Source: Promethearchaeota archaeon (GTDB taxonomy: Archaea; Asgardarchaeota; Lokiarchaeia; Sigyniarchaeales; SOKP01). Taken from it: 24,397 nt of DNA. The translations under genes were made by a program, and so were the position numbers. The DNA is taken from assembly GCA_048938895.1 (NCBI GenBank), contig JBHLLU010000045.1, positions 1 through 24,397 on the forward strand, in the 5' to 3' direction. How positions within the stretch are numbered: the first letter of the stretch is position 1; every line of letters starts with the position of its first letter. The notes under the pieces were generated by a model, which searched no databases, was not told the origin of the DNA, and saw only the letters and a list, made by a program, of their open reading frames with translations. Below are positions 757 to 15,882 of this stretch, piece after piece.

Positions 757-1269
757 TTAAATAAAACTTATAGCAATTATAATTAGAATTGTATTAATAA
801 TAAAGCCTAAAATGCCCAAAATGTTGCCTGCCTTCAGAATTGAGCTTTCTGCTTCTAGTTTTTTGGCATTTATATAACTTATTCTATTAAAGATTGCAAA
901 AATTATACCTATTGCATGTGCAATAGTTAAACCCATGAATATTCTGCTAGAAGGGGTATAATAATATGAGCTGTCTAAAACAATACTTGATCCAATATTA
1001 AATGATATTATACCAATTACTAGACAGACTATACCAAATCCTAAGCATCGTTTTGAATAAGGATTATAATTCTCTTTTTTAATTTGAGTATGACTTATAC
1101 TTTGATATTGTGGTGGAGTTGTAGATAATGGTTTATAAGGATCTCTTATAGGACTTAATTGAGAGCTATAAGAAATGCTTCTAATTTCTCTTCCACAATT
1201 CTGACAAAATCTCTGATTATCTATCTCAAGTTCTGACCCACAATTTTTACAATACATAATAGTTTTCAA
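757..1269 (-). CDS. Zinc-ribbon membrane protein (N-terminal double CxxC, three C-terminal TM helices)
   Basis: YCKNCG...FCQNCG zinc ribbon, an S/P/Q-rich linker, then three hydrophobic helices. ATG at 1257 (MYCKNCG) is an alternative start to TTG at 1269. Confidence 0.8.
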   Translation of the reverse strand: MKTIMYCKNCGSELEIDNQRFCQNCGREIRSISYSSQLSPIRDPYKPLSTTPPQYQSISHTQIKKENYNPYSKRCLGFGIVCLVIGIISFNIGSSIVLDSSYYYTPSSRIFMGLTIAHAIGIIFAIFNRISYINAKKLEAESSILKAGNILGILGFIINTILIIIAISFI

Positions 1270-1395
1270 TAAAAATTAATTTGGAATAAACAAATAATAT
1301 TAACTTCTTTAAATTAACAATTATTTATATAATTCTATGCAATAAATCTTGATTTATCTAACAATAAGCTTAGATTCAAAATTCTGGTTATCATT

Positions 1396-2871
1396 TTGAA
1401 AAATTATGATGTATTATTCATTCATCCCCCTCGTGTTTTAAATCCAGATCAAAATAAAAGAGGAAAATCTGTAAGAAGTTCATATTTATTTATTCCAATG
1501 GGAGTATTTGCTATAGCTGATTTCCTTGAAAGAGATGGATATGGGGTAAATATTGTAAATTATCCTCTCGAAAAATGCATAAATCCTAGCTGGTCTATAA
1601 GAGAATACCTTAAGTCTATTGATTTTAAAATTTGTGCGATAGACTTACACTGGATACATAATGCTCACGGAGCAATTGTAATTGCTCAAATCGCAAAGGA
1701 ATTAAATCCTCATGCTAAAGTAATACTCGGAGGATTTAGTGCATCATATTTTCATACTCAAATTTTGAAATATTATCGATCAATTGATGGAATAATAAGA
1801 GGAGAAGGAGAGGTACCACTTTTAAAATATGTTCAATGTTTTAACAAGAACCACTCTCTTGATTCTGTTCCAAATTTAACATATCGGAGTGCTTTAAACC
1901 ACATAAAAACTAATCCTCTTTCATATACAGCAAAAACTTTAGATGATTTAAATTTTACAAATTTTTCACTCTTAAAAAATGCTAAACACTACATCGAAGA
2001 TAGTAATAAAATTATGGGAATCTCTGTCAATATTCAAATAGGAAGGGGTTGTCCTTTTAACTGTCCTTTTTGTGGAGGAGGTCAGAGAGCTTTAGAGCAT
2101 TTAGCAGGTCGAAATAAGGTCATTTTGAGGAATCCTGAAAAAGTAGTAAGCGATATTAAATATATTAAAGATAATTATAATGCTAAAAATTTATTTTTTG
2201 GACATGGGGCTTATCCTGCTAATTTAGAATATTGGAGAACCTTATTTAGTTTAATTCAAAAAGAAAATATTGACATAGGGGGAGATCTAGAAATTTGGAG
2301 ATTACCTTTCCCAAAAGAAATGTGGAAAATATTTTCTAAAACCTTTTCTCGTAATTTTTCATCCATATCTATTTCTCCGAGAACATTATCATCTAAAGTT
2401 CATCAAAAAATAGCTAAAATTTGTGATCCAACTTTTAATTTTTCAGAGAATCAAATTAATGACTTAATAAAAAATGCAAATTATTTTCTAAGAACATTAA
2501 GAATTTGGCTTACCGTAGGATATCCTTTCCAAACTAAGAGGGATGTTCAAAAAGATTTTAATTTTGCACTCAAATGCACATTAAAATATGGAAAGTCAAA
2601 TTCAAAACCGATCGCTATTATGAATGAACCTTACCATATTTTCCCCGGTTCTCCTGCATTTGAATCCCCCGAATCTTTTGATATTAAATTGAAGCTAAAC
2701 TCCTTTCCACAACTTGAAAGATTTTTTGAACAGACTAAAATGTCATTTTTCTTTAATGCTTTAAATTATTATACAAAAAATTTTTCTGGGGCATCTATTC
2801 GCACCTTGAATATGCTTTTATTTTTAAATTCAGCACTCACCTTATTTACTACAGGCTCTAAATATTCTTGA
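1396..2871 (+). CDS. Cobalamin(B12)-binding domain radical SAM protein
   Basis: N-terminal B12-binding-like region (PMGVFAIADFL, IDLHW, ILGGFSAS, IIRGEGE) and GRGCPFNCPFC (CxxxCxxC). TTG start. Confidence 0.9.
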   Translation: MKNYDVLFIHPPRVLNPDQNKRGKSVRSSYLFIPMGVFAIADFLERDGYGVNIVNYPLEKCINPSWSIREYLKSIDFKICAIDLHWIHNAHGAIVIAQIAKELNPHAKVILGGFSASYFHTQILKYYRSIDGIIRGEGEVPLLKYVQCFNKNHSLDSVPNLTYRSALNHIKTNPLSYTAKTLDDLNFTNFSLLKNAKHYIEDSNKIMGISVNIQIGRGCPFNCPFCGGGQRALEHLAGRNKVILRNPEKVVSDIKYIKDNYNAKNLFFGHGAYPANLEYWRTLFSLIQKENIDIGGDLEIWRLPFPKEMWKIFSKTFSRNFSSISISPRTLSSKVHQKIAKICDPTFNFSENQINDLIKNANYFLRTLRIWLTVGYPFQTKRDVQKDFNFALKCTLKYGKSNSKPIAIMNEPYHIFPGSPAFESPESFDIKLKLNSFPQLERFFEQTKMSFFFNALNYYTKNFSGASIRTLNMLLFLNSALTLFTTGSKYS

Positions 2872-2957
2872 GTAAAAGAAATCAGAGTTAATAATCTAAG
2901 TTAATTCGAAATTTTTAAATAGAATTTAATTTTATAATTAAGAATACAAGATTTTGA

Positions 2958-3686
2958 TTGAAAGATACACTATTTAGCAAAATAAAAAGACCTAAATATA
3001 TGAAATCTAGCCAAAAGAATAAAATATTAAAAGATCTATTAATAATCATTATTTTTATTGCGACTATTCCAATTACCTTAGTTTATATGTTTATAAAGGA
3101 TTTTTCAACATTCAATTCTTTTATATATGATTACTTGACTTCCGGTAACTCGTTTTTCTTTCCATTTATTAAATCCGATAATATAATATTCCAATTCTCT
3201 TCGGGTCACTTGATTGACATCATTATTTTTATTAATATCACGGGAATTGTTGAAAGACTCAGTTATCAATATTACATGGCTATTATATTAAAAAATAATT
3301 TTTATGATTTTAGTACAGATTTATATCCTCTTGAATTTAAAGGATCAGAAGAAGAATTATTTCCTCTTTCAGATTTAACAATAAACTTGGAAGAGTGTTC
3401 AAGTATTGCTATGAATTCTAATACTCAAGCTAATTGTTTATTTAAAAAATATCGGTTTCGCTCCATTCAATTATCTGGTAAGAGTAGATATCATTTTAGT
3501 ATTAATCAGATGAAATATCATAGAAGTTGTTTACATAATTATAAATGTGATCAATCCAAAAATAGTTATTCTACATTTAAAGAACTGATAACTAATTTTT
3601 TATTAAATATTTACCTTCCTTCTAAAAATAATAGCATTTCCTCTTCTTTTAATGAAAACAACATACAGAAGGGGGGAATTAAATAA
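2958..3686 (+). CDS. Hypothetical protein with an N-terminal TM helix
   Basis: 242-codon ORF with hydrophobic LLIIIIFIATIPITLVYMF. No motif recognised and composition is low-complexity. ATG at 3000 is an alternative start. Confidence 0.5.
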   Translation: MKDTLFSKIKRPKYMKSSQKNKILKDLLIIIIFIATIPITLVYMFIKDFSTFNSFIYDYLTSGNSFFFPFIKSDNIIFQFSSGHLIDIIIFINITGIVERLSYQYYMAIILKNNFYDFSTDLYPLEFKGSEEELFPLSDLTINLEECSSIAMNSNTQANCLFKKYRFRSIQLSGKSRYHFSINQMKYHRSCLHNYKCDQSKNSYSTFKELITNFLLNIYLPSKNNSISSSFNENNIQKGGIK

Positions 3687-3766
3687 TGAAATATTACTTT
3701 TCTACAAATTTTATTATAACACAAAAATCTAAACTTTTTTCTAATGGAACTTATAAAAAAAGATGA
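3686..3766 (+). CDS. Candidate 26-aa small ORF MKYYFSTNFIITQKSKLFSNGTYKKR
   Basis: Its ATG overlaps the upstream stop (TAATG) and follows GGGGGGAATT at 3671-3680. Its TGA overlaps the ATG at 3763 (ATGA). Too short for the ORF track; no homology support. Confidence 0.3.
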   Translation: MKYYFSTNFIITQKSKLFSNGTYKKR

Positions 3767-5139
3767 ATAAGATGGAATGGAATAAAGAAATTGAAGATTT
3801 GTTTCAAAAAATAACTGATTTAACCCCTGACGCATTTCGACCTTCGGTTAAACCAATGCTGCGTGAAGCTTCTGAAAAGACAGCTCGGTTACGAAATTCT
3901 GGTTTTATTAGTAAAGATGATTTATTATCTGCTTTATTTGAGATAACCCCAGAAGCGTTTCAACCGACTGTTGTGGAAGATTTGAAAACAATCGGAATTG
4001 ATTCAACACGATATATTCAATTATCATCAATTAGGAAAGAATATGCAAGAACTTGGGATGAGATTGGAGCTGCATTTCTTCCTGGTGTTTATCATTTTAC
4101 TATTTATCTAACAGATAGATGCAATCAAAAATGCCAACATTGTGCTGCGGGAATCATGGATCATCGCCCAGAGTTATCAACAGAACAATGGATAAAGATT
4201 ATTGAGAATGTTGAACAAACTCTGCGAAAAATTGGGCGGCGTGGGTGTTATATTTGGTTTGGAGGTGAACCTACTCTCCGAAAAGATCTGAAAGATCTAA
4301 TAAAATACTGCGGAGAGAAGGGTTATTATCAAGCTATATCTACAAATGGTATGCTGTATGATGAGGAACTGGCAAAACTATGTGCAGAAGTTAAAATGAG
4401 TCATACTTTTATTAGCTATGACAGTGTTTATCCAGAGAGGGCTGCAAAAATTCGAGGTGTACCAAACGCATATGAAGCTGCTGAGAAAGCAATTAAACTA
4501 GCGTTGAAATACGGACATTTTGTTATTTGTACAGAGACAGTTCAAAAAGATAATTTTGATGAGATTGATAAAATAAAAGAAAAATTAGAATCCATGGGAA
4601 TAATTCCTTATTTCCGAGCAATTATAAAACAAAGAACAGCAGATATTAATTGGGATGAAATTGGATTATCTCATGATGAATATGTCCAATTTTATAATTT
4701 TAAGTATAAGAATGTCGTAGATGCAATCAGAAAAGGTGAGGGTTCTTCTCTTAACAAATTTTATACTTATGACATGGTTCCATTTATGGAATGTCCTGTA
4801 AATGATAAAGAACGAACTGCTCTCGAATGGGGTGTAGGATGTCAAGCGTGTCGCTCAGTTTCGGGTATTGATGTTAATGGGGATTTTTTTCCTTGTGATT
4901 ATCCTTCAAATTTAACATTGGGTAATGTTCTAGAACAACCATTTGAAGTAATTATGGAATCTGAAATGTTTAAAGCCATAAGAGATCGTAAAATAAAAGG
5001 TAGATGCTCAACTTGCCATCACCTTGAATTATGCGGTGGTGGTTGTCGCGTGCACGCCGAGAATATAACTGGAGATTTTCTTGAATCTCTTCCTTTTTGT
5101 TGGCATGATGATGACCATCAACATGACATAAATGCATAA
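3763..5139 (+). CDS. Radical SAM/SPASM protein (NirJ/AhbC/D/PqqE-like) with N-terminal DUF2621/PCP_red-like module
   Basis: TDRCNQKCQHC (CxxxCxxC), FGGEPTLR, ISTNG; SPASM cysteines GCQAC...GDFFPC...CSTCHHLELCGGGCR...PFCW. The start may be ATG 3772 (MEW), by analogy with the neighbouring genes. Confidence 0.93.
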   Translation: MNKMEWNKEIEDLFQKITDLTPDAFRPSVKPMLREASEKTARLRNSGFISKDDLLSALFEITPEAFQPTVVEDLKTIGIDSTRYIQLSSIRKEYARTWDEIGAAFLPGVYHFTIYLTDRCNQKCQHCAAGIMDHRPELSTEQWIKIIENVEQTLRKIGRRGCYIWFGGEPTLRKDLKDLIKYCGEKGYYQAISTNGMLYDEELAKLCAEVKMSHTFISYDSVYPERAAKIRGVPNAYEAAEKAIKLALKYGHFVICTETVQKDNFDEIDKIKEKLESMGIIPYFRAIIKQRTADINWDEIGLSHDEYVQFYNFKYKNVVDAIRKGEGSSLNKFYTYDMVPFMECPVNDKERTALEWGVGCQACRSVSGIDVNGDFFPCDYPSNLTLGNVLEQPFEVIMESEMFKAIRDRKIKGRCSTCHHLELCGGGCRVHAENITGDFLESLPFCWHDDDHQHDINA

Positions 5140-5140
5140 C

Positions 5141-5148
5141 GGGGAATT
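5141..5148 (+). promoter_or_regulatory. Putative Shine-Dalgarno-like site (GGGGAATT) before the second radical SAM
   Basis: GGGGA at 5141-5145, 5 nt before ATG 5151. Confidence 0.45.
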
Positions 5149-5150
5149 TT

Positions 5151-6551
5151 ATGGAATGGGAAGAAGAAACTAAAGGATTGTTTAAGAGAATAGTAGAGCA
5201 AATGCCACAGGGATTTCGACCATCTGTTGAACCTATGATTGTTAAAGCTGCTGAGAAGAGATGTCTTGAAAGAAATGGTGCCTATATTAATGATGCTGAT
5301 GTGGTTACAGGAATTTTTGACATTATTCCAGAGGTATTTAAACCTATTATGATAGAAGATTTAAAATCACTAAATATTGATGTAGAACGATATATTGAGC
5401 TAAAAGAACTAAAGGATAGACTTAAAGTTTCATGGGAAAAACTTGAAAGAGGCTTTCATCCTGGAAACATTCATTTTGCTCTATATGTAACAGATAGATG
5501 TAATCAAAAATGTCTTCACTGCGCTGCTGATGATCACATACCGAGGCCAGAATTATCAACAAAACAATGGTGTCAAATCATAGAAAACTTAGAAACTGGT
5601 TTACGAAAACAAGGAAGACATGGATGTTACGTTTGGTTTGGAGGGGAGCCAACATTACGCAGTGATATCGGTGAAATCATGAAATTTTGTAATGATAAAG
5701 ACTACATCCACGCTCTAATCACAAACGGTGTAAACTTTAATGATAAATTCGCTAAAATGTGCAAGGAAAATAATATCAGTCATATATTTATCAGTTTTGA
5801 TAGTGCTGATCCTAAGAAAAATGATAAAATTCGCGGATTTCCTAATTCTTTAGATTATGCACATAAAGCAATTAATCTATGCTTAAAATATGGGATCTTT
5901 GTTTGTTCTTCAATTACTGTAATGAAACAAAATATTAATGAGTTAGAAGAGCTAAAATCCCTATCAGAAAAATGGGGTTCACAACCATATTTTAGATGTG
6001 TAGTAAAACAAAATCGAGCTGCTGAATATTGGGATGAAATTGGGCTTAGTACAGAAGAATATAAGAAAATGTATGATTTCAAATATAAACATGCAGTTGA
6101 GACAATAAGAATAGGCAACGCTGGTACTCTACCTGCTTATGAAATTTACGATATGGTACCCTTTATGGAACAACCTAAAAATGACAAAGAATTGACTGCT
6201 ATTGAATGGGGTGTGGGATGTTTAGCTTGTAGAACGATGATGGGTATCGGTATAGACGGTACAATATACCCTGCAGGATATCCTACAACTTTAACACTTG
6301 GTAATGCTTTAAAAGATAATTTTGAGGATGTTCTTAATTCTCAGCTCTATAAAGACATTCGTGATAGAAAAAAGATAACAGGAAAATGTGCTTCTTGTCA
6401 CCATCTAAAATACTGCGGTGGAGGATGTCGAGTGACAGCAGAATATATTACAGGCGACTTTTTTGGGTCGTTTCCATTTTGTTGGCATGAAATGGATCAT
6501 GTTCATGAAGTTGAACTTGTTGAAAAAGAAGAAATTGGTTTAATCGAATAA
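5151..6551 (+). CDS. Radical SAM/SPASM protein, tandem paralogue of 3763..5139, with N-terminal DUF2621/PCP_red-like module
   Basis: TDRCNQKCLHC, FGGEPTLR, ITNG, GCLAC, CASCHHLKYCGGGCR, PFCW. Collinear with the upstream paralogue over its full length. Confidence 0.93.
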   Translation: MEWEEETKGLFKRIVEQMPQGFRPSVEPMIVKAAEKRCLERNGAYINDADVVTGIFDIIPEVFKPIMIEDLKSLNIDVERYIELKELKDRLKVSWEKLERGFHPGNIHFALYVTDRCNQKCLHCAADDHIPRPELSTKQWCQIIENLETGLRKQGRHGCYVWFGGEPTLRSDIGEIMKFCNDKDYIHALITNGVNFNDKFAKMCKENNISHIFISFDSADPKKNDKIRGFPNSLDYAHKAINLCLKYGIFVCSSITVMKQNINELEELKSLSEKWGSQPYFRCVVKQNRAAEYWDEIGLSTEEYKKMYDFKYKHAVETIRIGNAGTLPAYEIYDMVPFMEQPKNDKELTAIEWGVGCLACRTMMGIGIDGTIYPAGYPTTLTLGNALKDNFEDVLNSQLYKDIRDRKKITGKCASCHHLKYCGGGCRVTAEYITGDFFGSFPFCWHEMDHVHEVELVEKEEIGLIE

Positions 6552-6610
6552 AGGATTTGCTGAATTGAGTCAAAAGGAAATATCAAAATTAAAAAGAGTT
6601 TAATAAGAAA

Positions 6611-7777
6611 ATGGAATGGCAATCAAAAATTAAACAATTGTATGAAGATATGGTCTCGAAGATTCCAGAGATGGTAAGACCTGTTATAAAACCTATGCTT
6701 CTTGAAAAATCAGAAAAAAAATGCATTGAACGAAATGGAAAAAGCATTACTGAAATGGATTTGGTAGTGGCATTATTTGAGGTTACACCTCCAGCATTTC
6801 AACCAACCATGATTAAAGATTTGAAAGCACTGGGGGTTGATCTTGATTTATATCTACCGAAAGTGAATTCTGATTTTAAACTTAAAAATGATCTGAATCA
6901 AATGGTTAAAGATATTCATACTCTATGCAACCTTACTGGTGTAAATTTTAATGAAGAAGCTATTTGGAGAGGTCTCAATGCTTATAAAAAATTTTATTCC
7001 GGTTCCTCTCTATCCATTAGAACCACAACCAAACCAGTTGAAAAAAGAGATATTTCTGTAAGATATGTAGAAATGATGATCCCTCATAACCCTGATCCTT
7101 ATACAATCGCTCTCAGGGAAGGATTGATTAAAAAAAATGGTCATCCAATTCATAAAATGATATTAGAAGCATTCGATACGTTTGATATGATGGGTTATGG
7201 TGTGGATATTGATGCTAGAAAAGGACTCTCGAAAATATGGCCTTTTATTATACCGGGATCAATTGAACCCCTCTTTTCAATGAAATTCATACCTGAAACT
7301 ATCAAAAAATATGAGAGTTATTTCAAAAACCATAAATTGACAACATTAGCACTCTTCGCTTTTGATTTTTTACACAATACCACAAATATCTACTTCATGT
7401 TAAAGGATCCCTCAACGACAACTAATGATAAATGCAGAAGGCTTATAGAAGATTTAGGTTTCAGAGTTCCATCAGAAGAATTATTGAATTATTGTAGGAA
7501 TGCAGTGCATCTTAATTATACCTTTAGTTGGGATTCTGAAAAAATCGAACGACTATGCTTCGGTGTAGCATGTCATAATGCTAGGGAAGTTCCTATTCAT
7601 CTTCATCCTTTAATGCAAAAATTTATTAAGGGATCTCCTTTCCAAAGTGAAGTCCATAAGTTTATTTACGGTATTACTTTCACACCAGATGGTCTTTATT
7701 ACAAGATCGAAAATGATTATAATGGAACTATGGTAGATTTCTTGCTAATGGGCGCAAAAGCAGGATTAGCATTTTAA
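6611..7777 (+). CDS. ABBA-family soluble aromatic prenyltransferase (NphB/CloQ/Orf2-like PT-barrel) with N-terminal DUF2621/PCP_red-like module
   Basis: Segments match PTase_Orf2 family patterns in the expected order: SIRTTT..RDISVRY, NPDPY, GYGVDIDARKGLSKIWPF, AFDFLHNTTNIYF, YTFSWDSEKIERLCF, FIYGITFTPDGLYYKIENDY (compare NphB GGFKKTYAF, MDYKKRQVNLYF, TLNWETGKIDRLCF, YGLTLS...YYKL, recalled from memory). Confidence 0.85.
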   Translation: MEWQSKIKQLYEDMVSKIPEMVRPVIKPMLLEKSEKKCIERNGKSITEMDLVVALFEVTPPAFQPTMIKDLKALGVDLDLYLPKVNSDFKLKNDLNQMVKDIHTLCNLTGVNFNEEAIWRGLNAYKKFYSGSSLSIRTTTKPVEKRDISVRYVEMMIPHNPDPYTIALREGLIKKNGHPIHKMILEAFDTFDMMGYGVDIDARKGLSKIWPFIIPGSIEPLFSMKFIPETIKKYESYFKNHKLTTLALFAFDFLHNTTNIYFMLKDPSTTTNDKCRRLIEDLGFRVPSEELLNYCRNAVHLNYTFSWDSEKIERLCFGVACHNAREVPIHLHPLMQKFIKGSPFQSEVHKFIYGITFTPDGLYYKIENDYNGTMVDFLLMGAKAGLAF

Positions 7778-7832
7778 AAATTATTTTTTAATGATTATAA
7801 AAAAAAAATACAAAAATAAAATATTTAAAAAA

Positions 7833-7839
7833 AGGAGGT
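7833..7839 (+). promoter_or_regulatory. Shine-Dalgarno site AGGAGGT for the SCP2 gene
   Basis: Near-perfect SD 10 nt upstream of ATG 7850. Confidence 0.65.
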
Positions 7840-7849
7840 AAAAAATAAA

Positions 7850-8239
7850 ATGGATACAAGAGAAGAATGGGAAGCATATCTTGATAACTTCATGAGAGCA
7901 TACAATGAATTACCCGAATTATCAGCGCTATTAAAGCCAATAGCGCCATTAGTTTTCCAATACAAAATTAATGATCGTCCCGAGATGGACTATTGGCAAT
8001 ATATCGAAGAAGATAAAATGAACTGGGGAATGGGTGAATATACTGGTCCCGATGTACCAAAAGTTATTCATAAAACGAGTTTTGAAGTTATTAAGAAAGT
8101 GAATTCGGGAGAGACGAATCCTATTGAAGCAACAATGGCTGGGACTTATGATGTTGATGGAGACCCTTCTAAACTCATGGCATGTGCACCATTATTACCA
8201 CTTAATGCAAAAGCTCATGAAAAAGCTATTCAAAAGTAA
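7850..8239 (+). CDS. SCP2 (sterol carrier protein 2-like) lipid-binding domain protein
   Basis: 129 aa; C-terminal signature SGETNPIEATMAGTYDVDGDPSKLM matches the SCP2 pattern G.l.p..Afm.Gk.kv.GD..k.m. Strong SD. Confidence 0.8.
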   Translation: MDTREEWEAYLDNFMRAYNELPELSALLKPIAPLVFQYKINDRPEMDYWQYIEEDKMNWGMGEYTGPDVPKVIHKTSFEVIKKVNSGETNPIEATMAGTYDVDGDPSKLMACAPLLPLNAKAHEKAIQK

Positions 8240-8255
8240 AAATAAGGTGAGATAG

Positions 8256-9662
8256 ATTAATTTACACGTAGCTACAAACTGGGATTTAGTCCTTATAGAT
8301 GAAATTGCCCAATATCCCGTCAGTGATTTATATGGTGTAGCAGATCATACAATTATAGGAGGGGGTCGTCCCTCGTTCTTACTACAGAAAGTAACTGACG
8401 AATTTATTGCAGAATATATAAAAAAATTGGATCAAAAAGATATTGGTTTTTCATATCTATTAAATGCTCCATGTATGAATAATATGGAATATGATTCACA
8501 CTATCATAAAGAAATCCTTAAATATCTGGAGTGGATTAGCAATATTGGAGCAAATAGTGTTACGGTGACGATTCCATTTCTTATACAGCTTATTAAAGAA
8601 CAATTTCCTAAATTAAAAATAAGAGTTTCTACAATCGCTCATGTTAATAGTGTTAATCGTGCAAAATTCTATGAAATGCTGGGAGCAGATGAAATTACTC
8701 TCGATGTAATGATTAATCGCGATTTTAAAACATTAGAACATATTCAAAAAGCAGTAAAGTGTAAAATTATAGTCCTCTTAACTGATGGATGCTTATACCA
8801 ATGTCCATTTCGATATTATCATTATAATACGCTGGGGCATGCTTCACAAACATATCAACAGTTTGAACGCAATTATATTGATACATGTATCTTAAACTGT
8901 AGCACTATTAAATTCTCAGATCCAACAGAGGTCATTAAGGCAAGATGGATTCGACCAGAAGATTTATCGCATTATGAAGCAATTGGAATTGATAATTTTA
9001 AAATAGCTGGGCGTCGCATGTCAACGGAATGGATTGCTAGGTCTGTAAAAGCTTTCTCTTCCCGAAGATATGATGGAAATCTTATCGATATAATTCAAGG
9101 ATTCTCTATGTCTTTTGGGGGATTAGAACAAAAAGATCCAAATATGAAATTAACAGAAACAGTAAAGAAAGAGTCAAAAGCAAAATTAATAATTGATAAT
9201 ACGAAATTGGATGGTTTTATTGACTTTTTTAAAACACAGAATTGCTTAGCAATGTGTAATGAATGTAATTATTGTGATGAGTGGGCAAAAAAAGCAATAG
9301 AAGTTAATGAAGAAGAATCTCAACGATATGTAGAATCGATAAAACAGTATATGAATGATATTTTAACTAGCCGTGAATTTGGTGTTGAGTCAGTTAAGTC
9401 AAAAGAAATAGAAAAAACGGGTTTAGATTGGGATAGTGAAACAAAAAGATTATTTAATGAACTTATTAAGTTATCACCACCTCAATTTCAGCAGATGGCA
9501 AGAATGGCTATTTCTTCACTTGCAGAAGAAAAAGCACATAAGAGAGATTCATATATTGTTGAAAATCAGGATATAATAAACGCGTTTATAGAAGGAACTC
9601 CAGGACCATTTCAAGCTGATATGAGAGACGGACTTAAAAAATATGGTTTATTGGACAAATAA
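8256..9662 (+). CDS. U32 'peptidase' family Fe-S protein (superfamily of UbiU/UbiV/TrhP/RlhA) with C-terminal DUF2621/PCP_red-like module; probable ATT start
   Basis: In-frame extension upstream of the ORF-track start gives INLHVATNWD...LYG...GGGRPS...FSYLLNAPC, a typical N-terminus for this U32 subgroup. Also GCLYQCP, CILNC, WIRPEDL, FKIAGR, CLAMCNECNYC. SD GGTGAG at 8246-8251. Confidence 0.85.
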   Translation: MNLHVATNWDLVLIDEIAQYPVSDLYGVADHTIIGGGRPSFLLQKVTDEFIAEYIKKLDQKDIGFSYLLNAPCMNNMEYDSHYHKEILKYLEWISNIGANSVTVTIPFLIQLIKEQFPKLKIRVSTIAHVNSVNRAKFYEMLGADEITLDVMINRDFKTLEHIQKAVKCKIIVLLTDGCLYQCPFRYYHYNTLGHASQTYQQFERNYIDTCILNCSTIKFSDPTEVIKARWIRPEDLSHYEAIGIDNFKIAGRRMSTEWIARSVKAFSSRRYDGNLIDIIQGFSMSFGGLEQKDPNMKLTETVKKESKAKLIIDNTKLDGFIDFFKTQNCLAMCNECNYCDEWAKKAIEVNEEESQRYVESIKQYMNDILTSREFGVESVKSKEIEKTGLDWDSETKRLFNELIKLSPPQFQQMARMAISSLAEEKAHKRDSYIVENQDIINAFIEGTPGPFQADMRDGLKKYGLLDK

Positions 9663-9703
9663 TTTTTATTTTACTTTTTTAACCTAAATTTCTAAAAAAA
9701 AAC
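9660..9703. terminator. Putative bidirectional oligo-T terminator between convergent genes
   Basis: T-tracts on + (tttttattttactttttt) right after the U32 stop. An A-tract (T-tract on the minus strand) lies right after the LuxE-like stop. Confidence 0.45.
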
Positions 9704-11005
9704 TTAATAAACCCAGTTAATTAAAGAAGAACAACTTTTTCCTTGAGCATTTTTCAATCTCCCTATAATACGAAAGGTAGCTCCTGCATAACCACATTCC
9801 GGGCATTTAGTTTTCGAGACTAAATCAATTATATCGTCAACTAATACCGCTTGATTTATTGTACCATTAACACCATAAGGAGTAAGTACTTCCAAGAGTC
9901 CTTCTTCTCCTTTAGTAACTGGCTCCAAGTTTTCAAGGTCTCTAACAATTATTCTAGAAGTATCGGGACAATGGAGTAGGAAATCTTGATATTTTTCAGA
10001 CCAATGACCCCCAAATAGAGTTGGTCCTTCTGTAAAAGCATAAATATCCGCAAAATCTTTAGGTTTAATATTAAAGACTTTTTCATAATTTTCAAGAAAC
10101 TTCACTTTACTCACTTTGCCCATCTTCGCTTCACCTTTAACTCCATCCCATCCACCACCACCACAATTGACAGTAGCTTTTCCATCAAGATCAAAAAAAA
10201 TATTTTCTTTTAATAATCTTCTCTCAAACATATTATTCATTAAAAGAGGACTTCCACCAAAGATTATTTTACTTACTTCTACGTCTTTCCAGTGACCTTT
10301 TTTTAAGATGATCTCAATCATCTTTAGCATTTTACTAACATCTAGTACAAATCCTCCTCGTATTGAAAAAGTCGAAATTATAGCCCATATTGTTTTTAAA
10401 ATTTTGAATTTTACCATATATTCTTCATGTCCATAATATTCCCATGGTTTATTCATGCATGCTGTGAAATAACGAGTTTTATTGACAAATTCAAATCCCT
10501 TTGCATTCCGTTTAGCCATTAATGACATAAATAAGCGATCTGGTGCAAAATTAAAAACTAAACATTGCTTAGAGTCTTGTTTTAAATCCCTCCAACCAAA
10601 AAATTCTGTAAAAACTTTGATTGAGTTATACTGTATTTGATCAAAATCTTTTAAAGTTCGAGGAACTATTGATGGATCTCCTGTAGTAGAGGATGAGCAT
10701 GAAAAAAGAACAATTTCATTAAGAGGAACCTTGAGTAATTGAAGATTATTGTTTGCGGATTTTTTATAGGCTTCTGTTGGAATAAATGGGATTTGATTTA
10801 AATTATCAATAGTTAACTCTTCTGGAACTGTAAACTTAAAATTTTTACAGAGTTTATCCTTATAATAATTACAATTCTTATAAGATAGTATAACTTGTTC
10901 TAGGAGATCCTTACAAAATATATCATCTGAGTAATCTCGTGGAGCAAAATCAAAATATTTTGTTCTTAACTCATCAGGTAAATGATCGTGGAATTTTAAC
11001 AACAT
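9704..11005 (-). CDS. LuxE-like acyl-protein synthetase (ANL/PaaK-related)
   Basis: IPFIPTEAYK, SSSTTGDPS (adenylation P-loop), GGGWDG, DIYAFTE, EEGLLEVLTPY, DDII, CPECG..FRIIGRLKNAQGKSCS (C-terminal acylation-site Cys typical of LuxE). Confidence 0.82.
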   Translation of the reverse strand: MLLKFHDHLPDELRTKYFDFAPRDYSDDIFCKDLLEQVILSYKNCNYYKDKLCKNFKFTVPEELTIDNLNQIPFIPTEAYKKSANNNLQLLKVPLNEIVLFSCSSSTTGDPSIVPRTLKDFDQIQYNSIKVFTEFFGWRDLKQDSKQCLVFNFAPDRLFMSLMAKRNAKGFEFVNKTRYFTACMNKPWEYYGHEEYMVKFKILKTIWAIISTFSIRGGFVLDVSKMLKMIEIILKKGHWKDVEVSKIIFGGSPLLMNNMFERRLLKENIFFDLDGKATVNCGGGGWDGVKGEAKMGKVSKVKFLENYEKVFNIKPKDFADIYAFTEGPTLFGGHWSEKYQDFLLHCPDTSRIIVRDLENLEPVTKGEEGLLEVLTPYGVNGTINQAVLVDDIIDLVSKTKCPECGYAGATFRIIGRLKNAQGKSCSSLINWVY

Positions 11006-11072
11006 AAGAAAGTTGTCTTCAAAAAATACTGCTAGAATTAAAAAATATAGAAGGAATAAAATAATTTAAAGA

Positions 11073-12425
11073 TTATTTTACTGATAAAGCTTTAATTTCT
11101 TCTTCTTGTTTTTCCAAAATCATAGGTGTTTTTTCCCAGCTAATCTCTTTTGGAAGTTTGAATTGTCGTAAAAACATATAAAGATGGATAAACCCGCTTA
11201 TGAGAAAATACAGTAAAATACTATAATGACCATCACCATATTTCCGTACAGCATTAAATAAAAATCCAAATTGAAAGATTAAACAGGAAAGTGTCCAAGT
11301 TAACAAATACCATTCTCTAGTTAGAATTTGTAATATTGCAAATAATATTACAATCGGGATCCATGTGTCTAGGTTACCTATGAACGTCATTGTCATATTC
11401 CTCGAAATTATTATTGATTTTCCACTTTTTTCTTCACTATCCATAGACATTAACTTTGGCATATCAAAAATATAACCTGCAAGCCAACGAGTTCGCTGTT
11501 TTACCAGAATTTCCCATTTTGTAGGGACATATTCAGAGACCCTTGCTTTTGGTGAAAAAAATATGTTTATCCCGTCTAAATTTAGTAATACAGAAAGGTA
11601 AAGATCCTCTGTCATTGAATCCTCATTAAAACCCCCATATTTTTGGAGTTGTTCAGTACTAATAGCAAAATTTCTCCCAAATGCATAAGCCGAGGATCCT
11701 AATCTATTTTTTGTTTCAAATAAGATGCCTCCACCAGAAATTGTGGCATAATCAAGGTAAATACCTTTAGTTAATTTGTTAATTTTCCAATTTTCTACTA
11801 AAACAGGGCCTATAACAGCCTTTATCCTATCATCTTGAAAAGGAGCAATTAAATTTCTTAGTGTATTTGATTCTAAAATGCATCCTGAATCATAGAGTAC
11901 GACAATATCATTCTTTACATGTTTTAATCCATAATTCAAGGCAGGAGGTTTTCCTTTTTTAGGAAGATTATCAGATAGTACCTCTATGTCCATCATACCA
12001 TTTTCATTAGCAAATTTTTTTGAAAATTCAGTTGTATCGTCTGTTGATCCGCTTGTAATTATTATAATCTGGATGTTTTCCTTAGGATAATTTGATTTAA
12101 GAATAGAATTTAGTGTTCTCTCTAATAATATCTTTTCATTTTTAGAAGCAATTAATATACTAAGTTTTGCATTATATTCTCTCTTAACTCTATATCCCCT
12201 ACCAAAAGATGCCAAGAAATGTATTCCATAATATACTACAAATCCTATTAACATTATTAAACCGATTAGGGGGAAAATAAAGACCCAATTGGTTAGTGGA
12301 TCAAGAATAAAACGATTCAGGGCTCTCTTTACTCCTGATGAAAAAATTGGTGGGAGGTACATATGTAAAAGAACAAAAAATGCGACGCATACAGATCCAT
12401 ATAATAATAGTCTTGACAATTTCAT
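11073..12425 (-). CDS. Membrane-integrated glycosyltransferase family 2 (QxxRW type)
   Basis: SILIASKNE, SGSTDDT, GKPPALN, TEDL and QRTRW motifs, with N- and C-terminal TM helices. Confidence 0.9.
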   Translation of the reverse strand: MKLSRLLLYGSVCVAFFVLLHMYLPPIFSSGVKRALNRFILDPLTNWVFIFPLIGLIMLIGFVVYYGIHFLASFGRGYRVKREYNAKLSILIASKNEKILLERTLNSILKSNYPKENIQIIIITSGSTDDTTEFSKKFANENGMMDIEVLSDNLPKKGKPPALNYGLKHVKNDIVVLYDSGCILESNTLRNLIAPFQDDRIKAVIGPVLVENWKINKLTKGIYLDYATISGGGILFETKNRLGSSAYAFGRNFAISTEQLQKYGGFNEDSMTEDLYLSVLLNLDGINIFFSPKARVSEYVPTKWEILVKQRTRWLAGYIFDMPKLMSMDSEEKSGKSIIISRNMTMTFIGNLDTWIPIVILFAILQILTREWYLLTWTLSCLIFQFGFLFNAVRKYGDGHYSILLYFLISGFIHLYMFLRQFKLPKEISWEKTPMILEKQEEEIKALSVK

Positions 12426-12442
12426 TCTTGATAATCTCTTCT

Positions 12443-13375
12443 CTACTTTTCATTATCCATTTTCTTTAGATTTTTCCATATATATTTTCCAAATCCTATC
12501 ACAGAATATATCATAATAGCTAGTAAAGTGATCTGAAAAATAAACATACACCATGTAGTTATTCCAGTATGCGAGGATTCCCAGATTGCAGCGGCATCGG
12601 GATTTATTAGACTTGTAAGAAGTACTGTTAGGCTTGAAACACCGTAAATCGCAAAAAAAGTAGCAATTATCAATATTCGCGTAATTCTTTCCCCGATAAA
12701 GGGTTTTGTTTCATGCAAACCTAAACCTTCATGTCTAGCCCTCATATATTCATAGAGGAATATTATAAAAATATTCGTCCATATCATCCATTTGAAATCA
12801 TATTTGCTACCAGATAGAATTGAAAACCCTGTAGGAATTAAACATACCAACATTAATGTATCGCTGACTCTATCAATAATATTATCGAACCATGCTCCAC
12901 TTTTTGACTTTTTATCTAGTAACCTTGCGATAGCACCATCTATCCCATCGATCAATCCTGTAAATAAAACCAATAAAGCGAATATTACAAACCAGAACCC
13001 AAAAATAGGCTGTTCAGTAAGAATATCCAATGTATGCCCGAGTCCTGCTACTAACACCCCATAAAATATAAAAAGTGAAAAGATCAAATTCATTATAGAC
13101 ACTTTATTTGGGCTCAATCCCCATTTTATAAAGACTTTTGCACCCTTATAGGTTAATGGCATATATATTAAACCTGCTGGATCCTTTTTCATTTGGGCAA
13201 ATTGTTCTTCTACTTTATGAGCTTGTCCATGATCTCTAAGCCAATCCTTTATAAAGTCATCACAACTCATAAAATCCTGTTCTGCCCTTCTATTAGGTCT
13301 TCCGCTTATTAGAATTACTATAAGAAAAATCAATAAGATTATTGGAAATCCAATTATAAATATTAACTCTAGCAT
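12443..13375 (-). CDS. CDP-alcohol phosphatidyltransferase family protein
   Basis: SPNKVS and the signature DGIDGAIAR-x7-SGAWFDNIIDR; multiple TM helices. Confidence 0.92.
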   Translation of the reverse strand: MLELIFIIGFPIILLIFLIVILISGRPNRRAEQDFMSCDDFIKDWLRDHGQAHKVEEQFAQMKKDPAGLIYMPLTYKGAKVFIKWGLSPNKVSIMNLIFSLFIFYGVLVAGLGHTLDILTEQPIFGFWFVIFALLVLFTGLIDGIDGAIARLLDKKSKSGAWFDNIIDRVSDTLMLVCLIPTGFSILSGSKYDFKWMIWTNIFIIFLYEYMRARHEGLGLHETKPFIGERITRILIIATFFAIYGVSSLTVLLTSLINPDAAAIWESSHTGITTWCMFIFQITLLAIMIYSVIGFGKYIWKNLKKMDNEK

Positions 13376-13547
13376 TTAGACTCACAGATGGTTGTTTTTA
13401 AAATTACAAAGTTTAATATATTTGAAAATAGATTACAAGAAATATTTAAATTTAATCTTATTTAGGATTAAAATCTTCATTAGATAAATAATCAATCCTT
13501 AAAATATATTCGTTTAGAATTTTCTTTTTTGTAGATGGAGGTAAAGT

Positions 13548-14687
13548 TTAAAATACTTGATAGGCTTCTTTAATAGCTGAACACCCACCACAACGAACGC
13601 ATCCCGCTTTACTTTTTAATGGATTTACTCCATACTCTCTCATTAATTCACCGCTTCTCTCGTATATTTCCAACAAGTCATAATAGTTAGTTAAAGGTAA
13701 ATCACGCTTTCCAGGGATTGCTCTCACTGGTGTTATGTAAGGAATGACTCCTAATGAAATAAGATTTTCTATATCCTTAAGAAAATTTTCTTTATCCTCC
13801 CCAAATCCAGTTAAAACATAACTACTTACTTGATTTTCTCCAAATATATTTATCGCATGTTTCCAATTTTCTTCAAAAAGTTGATAAGAAAGGTGAAATT
13901 TACCAGGAGTAATATCTCTTCTTAAATCTTCATTGAGGATTTCAATATGGATGCCTATTGTATCTGCTCCTGCTTCTTTTAACTTATCAAAATAATCTAA
14001 ATCTTCTAATGCTTCAATTTGTATATGCAATGGGAGATTAGGATGATCTTCCTTAATCCCCTTTAATAATTCAATATACCGCTTTGCTCCTTTATCAATA
14101 GATTGGTCTGTACCACTTGTTAAAGTCATATGAGCACATCTTCCTTCCTTTTTAGCAGTAGTAATGACTTCAGACATCTGCTTTGCATTCTTTTCTTCGA
14201 TGGTTGAGTCATTTTGTAAACTTACTTCAATACCACAAAAAGAACATGCTTCCCCGCACGCCCAGTATACACATTTTTGATATATTGTACTGGCCAAGCA
14301 ATCTATACCATGAACCAAAGCAATTTTTTTCATAGGGATACCATCTGAAGTTTTATATTCTGGGCTATAATAAAGAGGATTTTGAATCAACTTTAGTTTT
14401 CCAAACAAAGCGTTACTCTTTTTGTTAAAAACTTCGAAAAATCCATCCTTATTTTCTTTTAGGAACAGATCTGTTTTTTCTGGGCTATTCCATAATGCAA
14501 TATTAACAAGAGTAGAATTATCCTCTAATAGAAAATATCTACCTCCAGACGGTCCAGCACCTCCTTTTCGACCATAGTCAATAAAAATCCCTTGATTCTT
14601 ATAATGATCGATTAATTCCTCATCAAGATATAGTCCACTGCAGAGTAATTTGGTCTTTTGCCTTAGAGCGGTTTCTTTACTTATCAT
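13548..14687 (-). CDS. Radical SAM protein, MSMEG_0568/NitD-like family
   Basis: GRKGGAGPSG near the N-terminus, HGIDCLASTIYQKCVYWACGEACSFC, LTSGT, GIHIE, and C-terminal KAGCVRCGGCS. Confidence 0.8.
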   Translation of the reverse strand: MISKETALRQKTKLLCSGLYLDEELIDHYKNQGIFIDYGRKGGAGPSGGRYFLLEDNSTLVNIALWNSPEKTDLFLKENKDGFFEVFNKKSNALFGKLKLIQNPLYYSPEYKTSDGIPMKKIALVHGIDCLASTIYQKCVYWACGEACSFCGIEVSLQNDSTIEEKNAKQMSEVITTAKKEGRCAHMTLTSGTDQSIDKGAKRYIELLKGIKEDHPNLPLHIQIEALEDLDYFDKLKEAGADTIGIHIEILNEDLRRDITPGKFHLSYQLFEENWKHAINIFGENQVSSYVLTGFGEDKENFLKDIENLISLGVIPYITPVRAIPGKRDLPLTNYYDLLEIYERSGELMREYGVNPLKSKAGCVRCGGCSAIKEAYQVF

Positions 14688-14919
14688 TTTATGCTTCTAT
14701 GCTGTGATTCCAAATCTATACTTTCAAAATCCTAGTATCCAGCAAGATTTTTATATGATCTGCTAATCTTCTATAAGTCTATATGAAAATTTATTTTGAA
14801 ATTATATGGTCTAATATTTATTTAGTATCTATAAGATTCAAAAACCTTATTAGATTTAAATTATTCTTGATTAATAACAAATAATTCTGAATTTATTTGA
14901 AGTGGAACTTTAACTAGTT

Positions 14920-14926
14920 AGGTGAT
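14920..14926 (+). promoter_or_regulatory. Shine-Dalgarno site AGGTGAT for rpl10e
   Basis: Archaeal-type SD 3 nt before ATG 14930. Confidence 0.55.
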
Positions 14927-14929
14927 AAG

Positions 14930-15562
14930 ATGGCAAATAAACGACCATGGCATTGCTATAGCAAATGGACAAGGAGACCTTACCAACATAAAAGATCTCC
15001 AAATCATCGGCGAGAATATGCTCGTGGTGGATCTCAATCTAAGATAGTTCGCTATTGGGGTGGTAATAAAGAAATACCTTGGGAAGAGTGGGACCTAGTT
15101 GTTGGCCTTAAAGTTAATAGACAGATTCAAATCTCCTCTAATACTCTTGAAGCAATTAGAATCACAATCAATGGGGCTCTTCAACGTAAATTAGGAAGAC
15201 AAAATTATCGTCTAAGGATACGACCGAAACCATTTCAAAAAATACGCGAAAACCGCATGCTTGCATTTGCAGGTGCTGATAGAGTACAATCTGGAATGAG
15301 AAATTCATTTGGACGATCAATGGGGGTAGCTGCTAGGATCAGAGCAGGACAAATTATTTTAGATGTTGGTACGCATTTAAGAAATCTTTCATTAGTAAGA
15401 GATCGTCTACGTGTTTCTTCTATGAAAGTTGCAAGTCCTTGTCAGATCGTAGTTTTAAATTATAAAACTCCCGAAATTTTAAAACGATCTGGTTTACCTC
15501 TCTATGATGCCAAAAAACGAAAAGAAATTCCCATTTACGAATTAGAATTCGCGAAAACTTAA
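14930..15562 (+). CDS. rpl10e: 50S ribosomal protein uL16 (L10e, archaeal/eukaryotic type)
   Basis: MANKRPWHCY, QISSNTLEAIRI, RIRPKPFQKIRENRMLAFAGADRVQSGMRNSFGR, AARIRAGQ: diagnostic L10e motifs. Confidence 0.96.
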   Translation: MANKRPWHCYSKWTRRPYQHKRSPNHRREYARGGSQSKIVRYWGGNKEIPWEEWDLVVGLKVNRQIQISSNTLEAIRITINGALQRKLGRQNYRLRIRPKPFQKIRENRMLAFAGADRVQSGMRNSFGRSMGVAARIRAGQIILDVGTHLRNLSLVRDRLRVSSMKVASPCQIVVLNYKTPEILKRSGLPLYDAKKRKEIPIYELEFAKT

Positions 15563-15882
15563 CTTCTTCTGTTATCTTTCAATAATCCATATTTATCTCT
15601 ATAAAAAATTGGTTAATATATAGTTCTATGAATCTTATTTAATCTATTTCGATGTTGTTTATATTAGCTAATGCACAAATAAAATGAGTAAATTAGAATA
15701 TTGGTATCCTTAATCATTTCAAATTTTTCCCATTCATAATGATTATGCATTATTTAACCTTAAAACTGTTCTAACTAGCAATATTATTATATTGAATATT
15801 CTATTTTGTGTAAGTGTAAAATATAATAATTTGTGTATATTCTTAAAATTAATAGATATTAAAACGGTTTGAATCCTAGACC

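Follow-up and report, generated by a model that had tools for sequence, protein, structure and literature searches.

What is the place of an ABBA-type aromatic prenyltransferase (PT) in an Asgard archaeon? The question is raised by a gene at positions 6611-7777 of a Promethearchaeota contig (GenBank assembly GCA_048938895.1, JBHLLU010000045.1, positions 1 to 24,397), which was analysed as one stretch of 24,397 nucleotides (nt), referred to here as the window. ABBA enzymes prenylate aromatic rings and are known from the secondary metabolism of aerobic actinomycetes, cyanobacteria, and fungi. In this work, the PT was found to be part of a conserved operon of putative tailoring enzymes that work without O2 and share its extra domain, a point missed by the earlier note on this DNA, which was made from the sequence alone. 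Judging from families, folds, and gene order, the seven genes of this operon probably provide a functional PT, enzymes that tailor an aromatic metabolite without O2, an SCP2-type carrier, and a DUF2621-like domain that acts as a docking module.

Identity and fold of the prenyltransferase

The open reading frame (ORF) 6611..7777 lies on the + strand and encodes 388 amino acids (aa). Position 6887, from which the earlier note had read an NphB/CloQ-type enzyme, is codon 93 of this ORF, and the domain fusion that it proposed is borne out by a separate helical domain at aa 1-92:

6611..6886, + strand: DUF2621-like helical domain at the N-terminus of the PT (aa 1-92); PF11084 at 25 bits against a cut-off of 27.7, own profile at E 1.6e-37
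6887..7777, + strand: ABBA / PT-barrel aromatic prenyltransferase domain (aa 93-388); PF11468 match, PDB sequence matches, structural model, and Foldseek

All four of the ordered PT-barrel motifs reported before (GYGVDIDARKGLSKIW, FAFDFLHNTTNIYF, YTFSWDSEKIERLCF, and IYGITFTPDGLYYKIEN) are present in the ORF. The Pfam profile PTase_Orf2 (PF11468) matches aa 94-378 with E 1.5e-52 and 179 bits against a cut-off of 22, and the match covers model positions 2-283 of 287. A phmmer comparison with PDB sequences gave AmbP1, FamD1, and AmbP3 at about 1e-42, followed by EpzP (8e-38), NphB (6e-22), and CloQ (4e-9). According to an excerpt of PMC7839719, a PT-barrel consists of five alpha-beta-beta-alpha repeats that form an antiparallel barrel of 10 strands. 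The AlphaFold2 model of the PT, built with 28 homologues as input (predicted local distance difference test, pLDDT, 92.5; predicted template-modelling score, pTM, 0.89), has 10 strands arranged as five pairs with helices on either side, which is the barrel that marks the ABBA family. The lack of a PT-barrel, which would have refuted the earlier note, is thereby contradicted. The best Foldseek match of this model was AmbP3 (5y7c; E 2e-30, template-modelling score, TM, 0.92 for the target, root-mean-square deviation 2.2 over 291 columns), and EpzP, NphB, and CloQ followed with TM values of 0.88, 0.81, and 0.80, respectively. By family and fold, ORF 6611-7777 is an ABBA (CloQ/NphB-superfamily) aromatic prenyltransferase, as had been proposed. 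The identity of the gene is not new in itself, since public annotation names homologues 'aromatic prenyltransferase'.

The closest solved relatives, AmbP1, AmbP3, and FamD1 of the hapalindole-ambiguine group (28-32% identity, TM 0.89-0.92), share with the PT the barrel and an end motif K-[IV]-[DE]-x-D-Y. On the other hand, they are unfused proteins of about 300 aa which act on indole isonitriles in aerobic cyanobacterial secondary metabolism, and they have neither the DUF2621-like domain nor partners of the kinds found here (radical S-adenosylmethionine, rSAM; U32; SCP2). EpzP/PpzP, NphB (Orf2), and CloQ have the Pfam family, the fold, and aligned basic and Asn/Tyr barrel positions in common with the PT, although they are only 20-28% identical, actinobacterial, unfused, and part of O2-dependent pathways; the partner of CloQ, CloR, is an oxygenase.

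We take residues K119, N173, Y175, Y216, R228, and K284 of NphB to be those that bind the prenyl diphosphate. In the profile alignment, the PT has the same residue at five of these six positions, namely K208, N259, Y261, R314, and K365, which correspond to NphB K119, N173, Y175, R228, and K284. Among 28 family members, N259, Y261, R314, and K365 never vary, and the conservation of K208 is 90% or more. In the same alignment, the position of NphB Asp62 is occupied by S149, and R151, which lies two residues further on the same strand, is invariant and has an Arg counterpart in EpzP and the AmbP/FamD enzymes. This pattern would be compatible with CloQ-like catalysis that needs no Mg2+; CloQ-type enzymes are described in an excerpt of PMC7839719 as not needing Mg2+.

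The operon and its shared helical domain

The PT gene is the fifth of seven + strand genes that form an operon at 1396-9662 with gaps of 11-86 nt. They are, in order, a B12-binding rSAM gene (B12-rSAM), a hypothetical gene, two rSAM/SPASM genes, the PT, an SCP2 gene, and a U32-like gene. The six partners of the PT are:

1396..2871, + strand: B12-binding rSAM enzyme, putative C-methylase, first gene of the operon; Pfam B12-binding and Radical_SAM
2958..3686, + strand: hypothetical protein whose N-terminus has a hydrophobic stretch; 8 loci have a weakly conserved counterpart (31-44%) at this position
3763..5139, + strand: rSAM/SPASM enzyme 1 with an N-terminal DUF2621-like domain at 3772-4050 (domain E 4.6e-34); Radical_SAM and SPASM
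5151..6551, + strand: rSAM/SPASM enzyme 2 with an N-terminal DUF2621-like domain at 5151-5429 (domain E 4.4e-36); Radical_SAM and SPASM, weak DUF2621
7850..8239, + strand: SCP2-type protein of 129 aa, putative carrier of a hydrophobic intermediate; PF02036 match of 21.8 bits (cut-off 21.3)
8256..9662, + strand: U32-like protein of 468 aa with a C-terminal DUF2621-like domain at 9423-9656 (domain E 1.3e-25), putative O2-independent hydroxylase; Peptidase_U32 at E 2e-13

The DUF2621-like domain links four of these enzymes, as it is N-terminal on both rSAM/SPASM proteins and on the PT, and C-terminal on the U32-like protein. The name is used with its suffix because the match to PF11084 is mostly below the gathering score: the copies in the operon score 15.7-30.9 bits against a cut-off of 27.7, and only the copy on the U32-like protein passes. 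A profile of the domain, run against the whole 4.65-Mb genome, gave four matches, every one of which lies in the operon 1396-9662. In a collection of 5.8 billion proteins, 172 carriers were found, and the best 120 of them were classed as U32 proteins (64), PTase_Orf2 proteins (42), rSAM/SPASM proteins (3), an aldehyde:ferredoxin oxidoreductase (1), and proteins without another Pfam domain (10). The oxidoreductase (P0343, 711 aa, PF02730 and PF01314) is the sole carrier among these 120 with a known family other than PT, U32, or rSAM. On PTs, the domain is N-terminal in Asgard proteins and C-terminal in two others, L031 from Thermoplasmata and P0119; it is present on 17 of 115 PT representatives (at least 260 aa, from a 50%-identity library).

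In the predicted model of the PT, the domain consists of five helices (pLDDT 86-90) and is separate from the barrel. A Foldseek search of the domain against the PDB returned nothing at E <= 1e-3. The wide search with VIA-align placed the lid of Mg-chelatase BchI first, with a Z of 8.6 that is inside the tool's stated background for helical bundles, and then other AAA+ lids and cyclin folds (Z 6-7.5); no function was drawn from these matches. An assignment to PCP_red, the C-terminal domain of protochlorophyllide reductase, was rejected, as it has no Pfam support and its structural match to 2l09, which we assume to be an entry of the PCP_red type, is weak (Z 5.7).

The partner enzymes can be placed in families, and their scores remain far from those of named functions. 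For enzyme 1 of the rSAM/SPASM pair, the nearest NCBIfam models (NirJ1, AhbD, and AhbC) score about 130 bits, which is far under their cut-offs, and for enzyme 2 the nearest is AhbD with 140 bits (cut-off 500). Both share with AhbD, AhbC, NirJ, and MftC the radical-SAM core and the SPASM domain, and these are their best-scoring models; they differ from them in score (130-140 bits against cut-offs of 500-650) and in the extra N-terminal domain, which is absent from the models. For the B12-rSAM enzyme, the best NCBIfam model is TIGR04190 (252 bits against a cut-off of 500), and many Asgard loci have a homologue with 56-78% identity upstream of the pair. The SCP2 protein has orthologues with 60-90% identity in 29 places. 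The hypothetical protein 2958..3686 matched nothing in Pfam or NCBIfam.

The U32-like protein matches the Pfam U32 model over positions 2-67 of 233 only, and its sole NCBIfam match is TrhP with 26 bits against a cut-off of 534. Five cysteines (C73, C179, C183, C215, and C340) are invariant in 11 cluster-linked U32-like proteins. The start of its gene is unusual. The frame is open from 8256, just after a TAG, and there is no ATG, GTG, or TTG near the conserved N-terminus (8240-8262). The gene most likely starts at an ATT, which stands 5 nt after GGTGA. Since the corresponding locus L019, on a Promethearchaeota contig from a metagenome-assembled genome (MAG), has the same layout with ATA (11625-11650), the non-canonical start codon seems to be conserved. 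The default ORF call (8427, TTG) drops 57 conserved residues.

Conservation and fusions of the gene module

The operon was compared with 45 loci, which were drawn from the PT alignment in species-representative genomes and searched with the window proteins by tblastn (E <= 1e-8, at least 50% query cover). In 29 of the 45 loci, including a chromosome from Thermoplasmata (L031) and a MAG of Pseudobacteroides (L037), the PT is accompanied by one or more rSAM/SPASM homologues and also by one or more homologues of SCP2 or U32. Nine loci, mostly on short contigs, have the PT with only one of the two kinds, six have the PT alone, and one has the small domain only. Parts of the module are also present on contigs of Deferrimicrobium, Aminicenantes, and Thermoanaerobaculia. 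Larger versions contain two more U32-like genes and a second B12-rSAM, whose nearest models, 'lipid biosynthesis B12/rSAM' and the benzimidazole C-methylase BzaD, are both below cut-off.

Several components are joined in single proteins. The SCP2 domain is fused to rSAM/SPASM in L023 and L031 and to the PT in P0127, and in 12 of 29 SCP2 orthologues it forms the C-terminus of a U32-like protein of about 680 aa that also carries the DUF2621-like domain. In L023, a second rSAM/SPASM-SCP2 pair lies downstream. The fused PT itself occurs in two or three copies in some genomes (L002, L003, L028; G030, G186), in tandem in L002 and L003.

Bacterial variants of the module bring further genes. A type-1 isopentenyl-diphosphate (IPP) isomerase (157-169 bits against a cut-off of 127) directly follows the PT in the Bacillota loci L042 and L043 and lies within the cluster in L037, where a 3-deoxy-D-arabino-heptulosonate 7-phosphate (DAHP) synthase stands beside the cluster at its end. 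L040 has a class-I methyltransferase and a B12-rSAM near the PT. In L041, a Thermoanaerobaculia contig, the PT is followed by an rSAM/SPASM protein with the shared domain and then by two cytochrome P450s (783-6530), which occupy the place of the U32 genes elsewhere. This locus resembles an O2-dependent variant of the pathway. The bacterial variants, with their IPP isomerase, DAHP synthase, P450 swap, and L040 genes, agree with the tailoring of an aromatic metabolite.

Distribution and phylogeny

The distribution was examined in an even set of 301 genomes of the phylum, which are related and not independent. The PT is present in 19 of them, which include 17 of 68 genomes of the window's family besides G000 and the single genome sampled from a second family; within the window's own genus, only one of 22 other genomes has it. 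All 19 PT-holding genomes also have an SCP2 orthologue, which is found in 23 genomes in all, four of them without a PT match. The PT superfamily is small: in a set of 1.84 billion representatives, it makes up 253 clusters at E <= 1e-3.

In the trees calculated with FastTree and IQ-TREE, the PT falls in a clade of Asgard sequences (support 98-100), the nearest named neighbours of which are from Helarchaeota, Thermoplasmata, Deferrimicrobium, Aminicenantes, Clostridia, and Omnitrophota. In FastTree, a clade of 54 rows (support 96) includes all module-linked PTs except that of L041. The quick IQ-TREE analysis gave a clade of 53 rows (support 96) that keeps 43 of 45 linked rows and adds 10 unfused representatives; P0175, the one named representative of the Streptomyces type and similar to SCO7190, is outside this clade, which holds the window's PT. 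A single clade of module-linked PTs was dropped after the IQ-TREE result, and only the Asgard clade (21 rows, support 99) is claimed. The PT and its module are common to Asgard archaea, one Thermoplasmata archaeon, anaerobic Bacillota, Deferrimicrobium, Aminicenantes, and Thermoanaerobaculia. Horizontal transfer, which the earlier note had suggested, is plausible in view of this patchy spread in the phylum and the sharing among distant anaerobes; because the trees are unrooted, no donor is named, and no direction of transfer is claimed.

A putative O2-independent pathway

The composition of the module recalls known ways of modifying aromatic rings without O2. AhbD, AhbC, NirJ, and MftC act on carboxyalkyl groups of aromatic systems, which they cleave or decarboxylate, B12-rSAM enzymes catalyse C-methylation, and TrhP is, by its NCBIfam name, a U32 protein for the hydroxylation of ring carbons without O2. 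In the CloQ/CloR route, 4-hydroxyphenylpyruvate is prenylated, and two carbons are then removed by the oxygenase. The most similar combination is UbiT/UbiU/UbiV. In an excerpt of the study by Pelosi (2019, PMC6747719), UbiT is an SCP2 protein, UbiU and UbiV are U32 proteins with four-Cys Fe-S sites that hydroxylate ring carbons without O2 in the ubiquinone route with the SCP2 partner, and a ubiT-ubiU fusion is described. As far as that excerpt goes, the operon resembles this system in an SCP2 gene beside a U32 gene with conserved cysteines, in SCP2-U32 fusions, in its occurrence in anaerobes, and in the prenylated aromatic compound proposed here. However, the U32 proteins of the operon match no UbiU/UbiV model and carry the extra domain, and their Cys spacing, C-Xn-C-X3-C-X31-C, differs from the CX6CX15CX3/4C and UbiV motifs given in the excerpt (PMC6747719). 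Moreover, prenylation would be catalysed by a soluble ABBA enzyme in the operon and is catalysed by the membrane protein UbiA in the Ubi route, the hosts of the operon have none of the quinone users looked for, and no ubi genes are present in the window.

Because none of the partners reaches an equivalog cut-off, their chemistry is read here from distant relatives. We hypothesize that the PT prenylates an aromatic acceptor derived from shikimate, and that the group added may be dimethylallyl. The two AhbD/NirJ-like rSAM/SPASM enzymes could then remodel the carboxyalkyl side chain by oxidative decarboxylation, which would be the anaerobic counterpart of the route from CloQ to CloR and is the most specific of our suggestions. 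In a third step, the U32-like Fe-S protein may hydroxylate the ring, as UbiU/UbiV and TrhP do, and in a fourth the B12-rSAM enzyme may methylate it at carbon. The SCP2 protein would hold the hydrophobic intermediate, and the DUF2621-like domain on the four enzymes could be a pathway-specific docking module to a common partner, which may be SCP2 or the enzymes one to another.

A more far-reaching version is put forward only tentatively. It would be an O2-independent pathway to a prenylated, hydroxylated, and methylated aromatic cofactor or shuttle, in which every enzyme docks to SCP2 via its DUF2621-like domain, AhbD-like rSAM enzymes replace CloR, and U32 proteins replace P450 or flavin hydroxylases; it would be common to Asgard archaea of the Lokiarchaeia type, some Thermoplasmata, and sediment anaerobes. 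Docking on SCP2 would then be a small-molecule analogue of guidance by a leader peptide or a carrier protein. What sets the present PT apart is that it is built into a conserved anaerobic module with putative O2-free stand-ins for oxygenases (rSAM/SPASM, U32, and B12-rSAM), the parts of which are linked by a domain nearly confined to these enzyme families. If the proposal is true, it would give a new oxygen-free route to prenylated aromatics, would assign a function to DUF2621-like domains and to an extensive orphan branch of the U32 family, and would point to a hitherto undescribed lipophilic metabolite in the archaeal lineage closest to eukaryotes. A search of the literature on Asgard aromatic prenyltransferases, DUF2621, and the U32/SCP2/rSAM/PT module found nothing relevant.

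Several results weigh against the tailoring of an aromatic metabolite by this operon. Catalysis by the PT is only predicted, as are its substrate and product, and the position of NphB Y216, which is Y in other family members, is N302 in this PT. The rSAM/SPASM, U32, and B12-rSAM proteins are far under every NCBIfam equivalog cut-off. In addition, the PT has no module genes nearby in 6 of the 45 loci, so the PT clade is not everywhere tied to the module, and the module-linked PTs do not form one clean clade in IQ-TREE, where the label needs six changes. Searches of the host's own genome (98.7% complete) found no NuoH, NrfD, cytochrome bd, or MqnA/D, and thus no physiological role is evident. 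Finally, one domain on every pathway enzyme is a hallmark of leader-peptide recognition in the biosynthesis of peptides made by ribosomes and modified after translation (RiPPs).

The last point leads to a RiPP-like cluster, in which the rSAM/SPASM and B12-rSAM enzymes and the PT would modify a ribosomal peptide or small protein, the DUF2621-like domain would bind its leader, and the U32 protein would be the leader peptidase. RiPP clusters typically have several paralogous rSAM/SPASM enzymes together with B12-rSAM enzymes, many of the models for RiPP maturases match here with 1e-15 to 1e-27, and the domain is placed where recognition elements sit on rSAM maturases. The RiPP recognition element (RRE) is a winged helix with a beta-sheet, and the domain model is all-helical. 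The domain gave no PqqD or RRE match in Pfam and no diagnostic fold match. With gaps of 11-86 nt, the operon itself cannot accommodate a precursor gene, which might lie elsewhere in the genome. The recurrent small neighbours of the cluster, which were considered as precursors, were rejected in this role, since they are multi-pass zinc-ribbon membrane proteins and not leader/core peptides. Peptide-prenylating enzymes with the ABBA fold do exist, and one of them, LimF, is among the Foldseek matches of the PT, but with a TM of 0.5, whereas the nearest structures are small-molecule enzymes (AmbP, FamD, EpzP; TM 0.88-0.92). The fusions with SCP2, the IPP isomerase and DAHP synthase close by, and the P450s in place of U32 proteins likewise fit a small lipophilic substrate, and we consider a RiPP-like cluster rather unlikely. 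The product might also be a membrane electron carrier, either a respiratory quinone made without O2 or a prenylated phenazine like methanophenazine, the link that the earlier note had wanted to see pursued. The O2-independent ubiquinone route is marked by SCP2 together with U32, and the phenazine prenyltransferase EpzP is among the close structural relatives of the PT. In addition to the quinone-related proteins named above, the own genome lacks McrA, and an NuoH/FpoH-type subunit was not found in five other holder genomes either. Methanosarcina acetivorans produces methanophenazine, and PTase_Orf2 was found in none of 14 control genomes, among which is M. acetivorans. The IPP isomerase near bacterial PTs hints at a C5 donor and not at a long polyprenyl tail, and the patchy spread (1 of 22 other genomes of the genus) misfits a core respiratory cofactor. 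A role in methanophenazine or a core respiratory quinone is thus unlikely, the phenazine link did not hold up, and an electron carrier as such is given a low probability.

The best NCBIfam matches of both rSAM/SPASM enzymes (NirJ1, AhbD, and AhbC) could instead point to a tetrapyrrole or other cofactor, with AhbD/AhbC/NirJ-like enzymes acting on siroheme-derived tetrapyrroles and the helical domain binding the macrocycle, as the BchI lid, the best structural neighbour of the domain (Z 8.6), might suggest. These scores are 4-5 fold under the equivalog cut-offs, the Z value lies within the background for helical bundles, no other tetrapyrrole gene was found among the window proteins with Pfam and NCBIfam, and we know of no ABBA enzyme that acts on a tetrapyrrole, which makes this explanation very improbable. 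That the PT is a stand-alone secondary-metabolite enzyme gained by transfer, next to unrelated neighbours, would account for the six loci without the module; the shared domain, the fusions, the co-occurrence, and a gene order conserved across archaea and bacteria speak against it so strongly that we assign it hardly any weight, and for the window itself it is close to refuted. By comparing these explanations, we prefer the tailoring of a small aromatic metabolite without O2.

The host contig and neighbouring genes

The window lies on contig C72 of an assembly of 4.65 Mb (98.7% complete, 7.5% contamination). The contig is archaeal and of the Lokiarchaeia type, and a bacterial or chimeric origin, which the earlier note had allowed for, is contradicted by several results. 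Its genes include those for ribosomal protein L10e, an archaetidylinositol-phosphate-synthase-like protein, and an Arf/Ras-like small GTPase. Nearly all of 118 close homologues of the PT have about 390 aa, with 55-89% identity, and the named ones come, by their submitters' names, from Promethearchaeota, Lokiarchaeota, Odin-, Hod-, Hermod-, and Thorarchaeota. There is no sign of a chimera, because L019 is syntenic with 12 window genes (757-17232, 42-90% identity) and the guanine-cytosine content is even along the window (0.25-0.34).

Further genes of the window were recorded beside the operon:

757-1269, - strand: zinc-ribbon protein
9704-13375, - strand: trio adjoining the operon, consisting of a LuxE/PaaK-like adenylate-forming enzyme, a GT2 glycosyltransferase, and a CDP-alcohol phosphatidyltransferase (archaetidylinositol-phosphate-synthase-like)
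13548-14687, - strand: MSMEG_0568-family radical-SAM protein with 261.7 bits (cut-off 303.7, narrowly missed); also present in L019 and L024
19542-20135, + strand: small Arf/Ras/Roc/RagA-like GTPase of a kind typical of Asgard genomes

The trio stands beside the cluster in about ten Asgard loci, in either orientation, and might decorate or anchor the product or be mere conserved synteny. The zinc-ribbon proteins are paralogues of about 170-190 aa with an N-terminal zinc ribbon and several hydrophobic helices. One to three copies lie beside the cluster in several Asgard loci, and they are found in L021 (2596-3102 and 16054-17235), L004, L009, and L024 as well as in the window.

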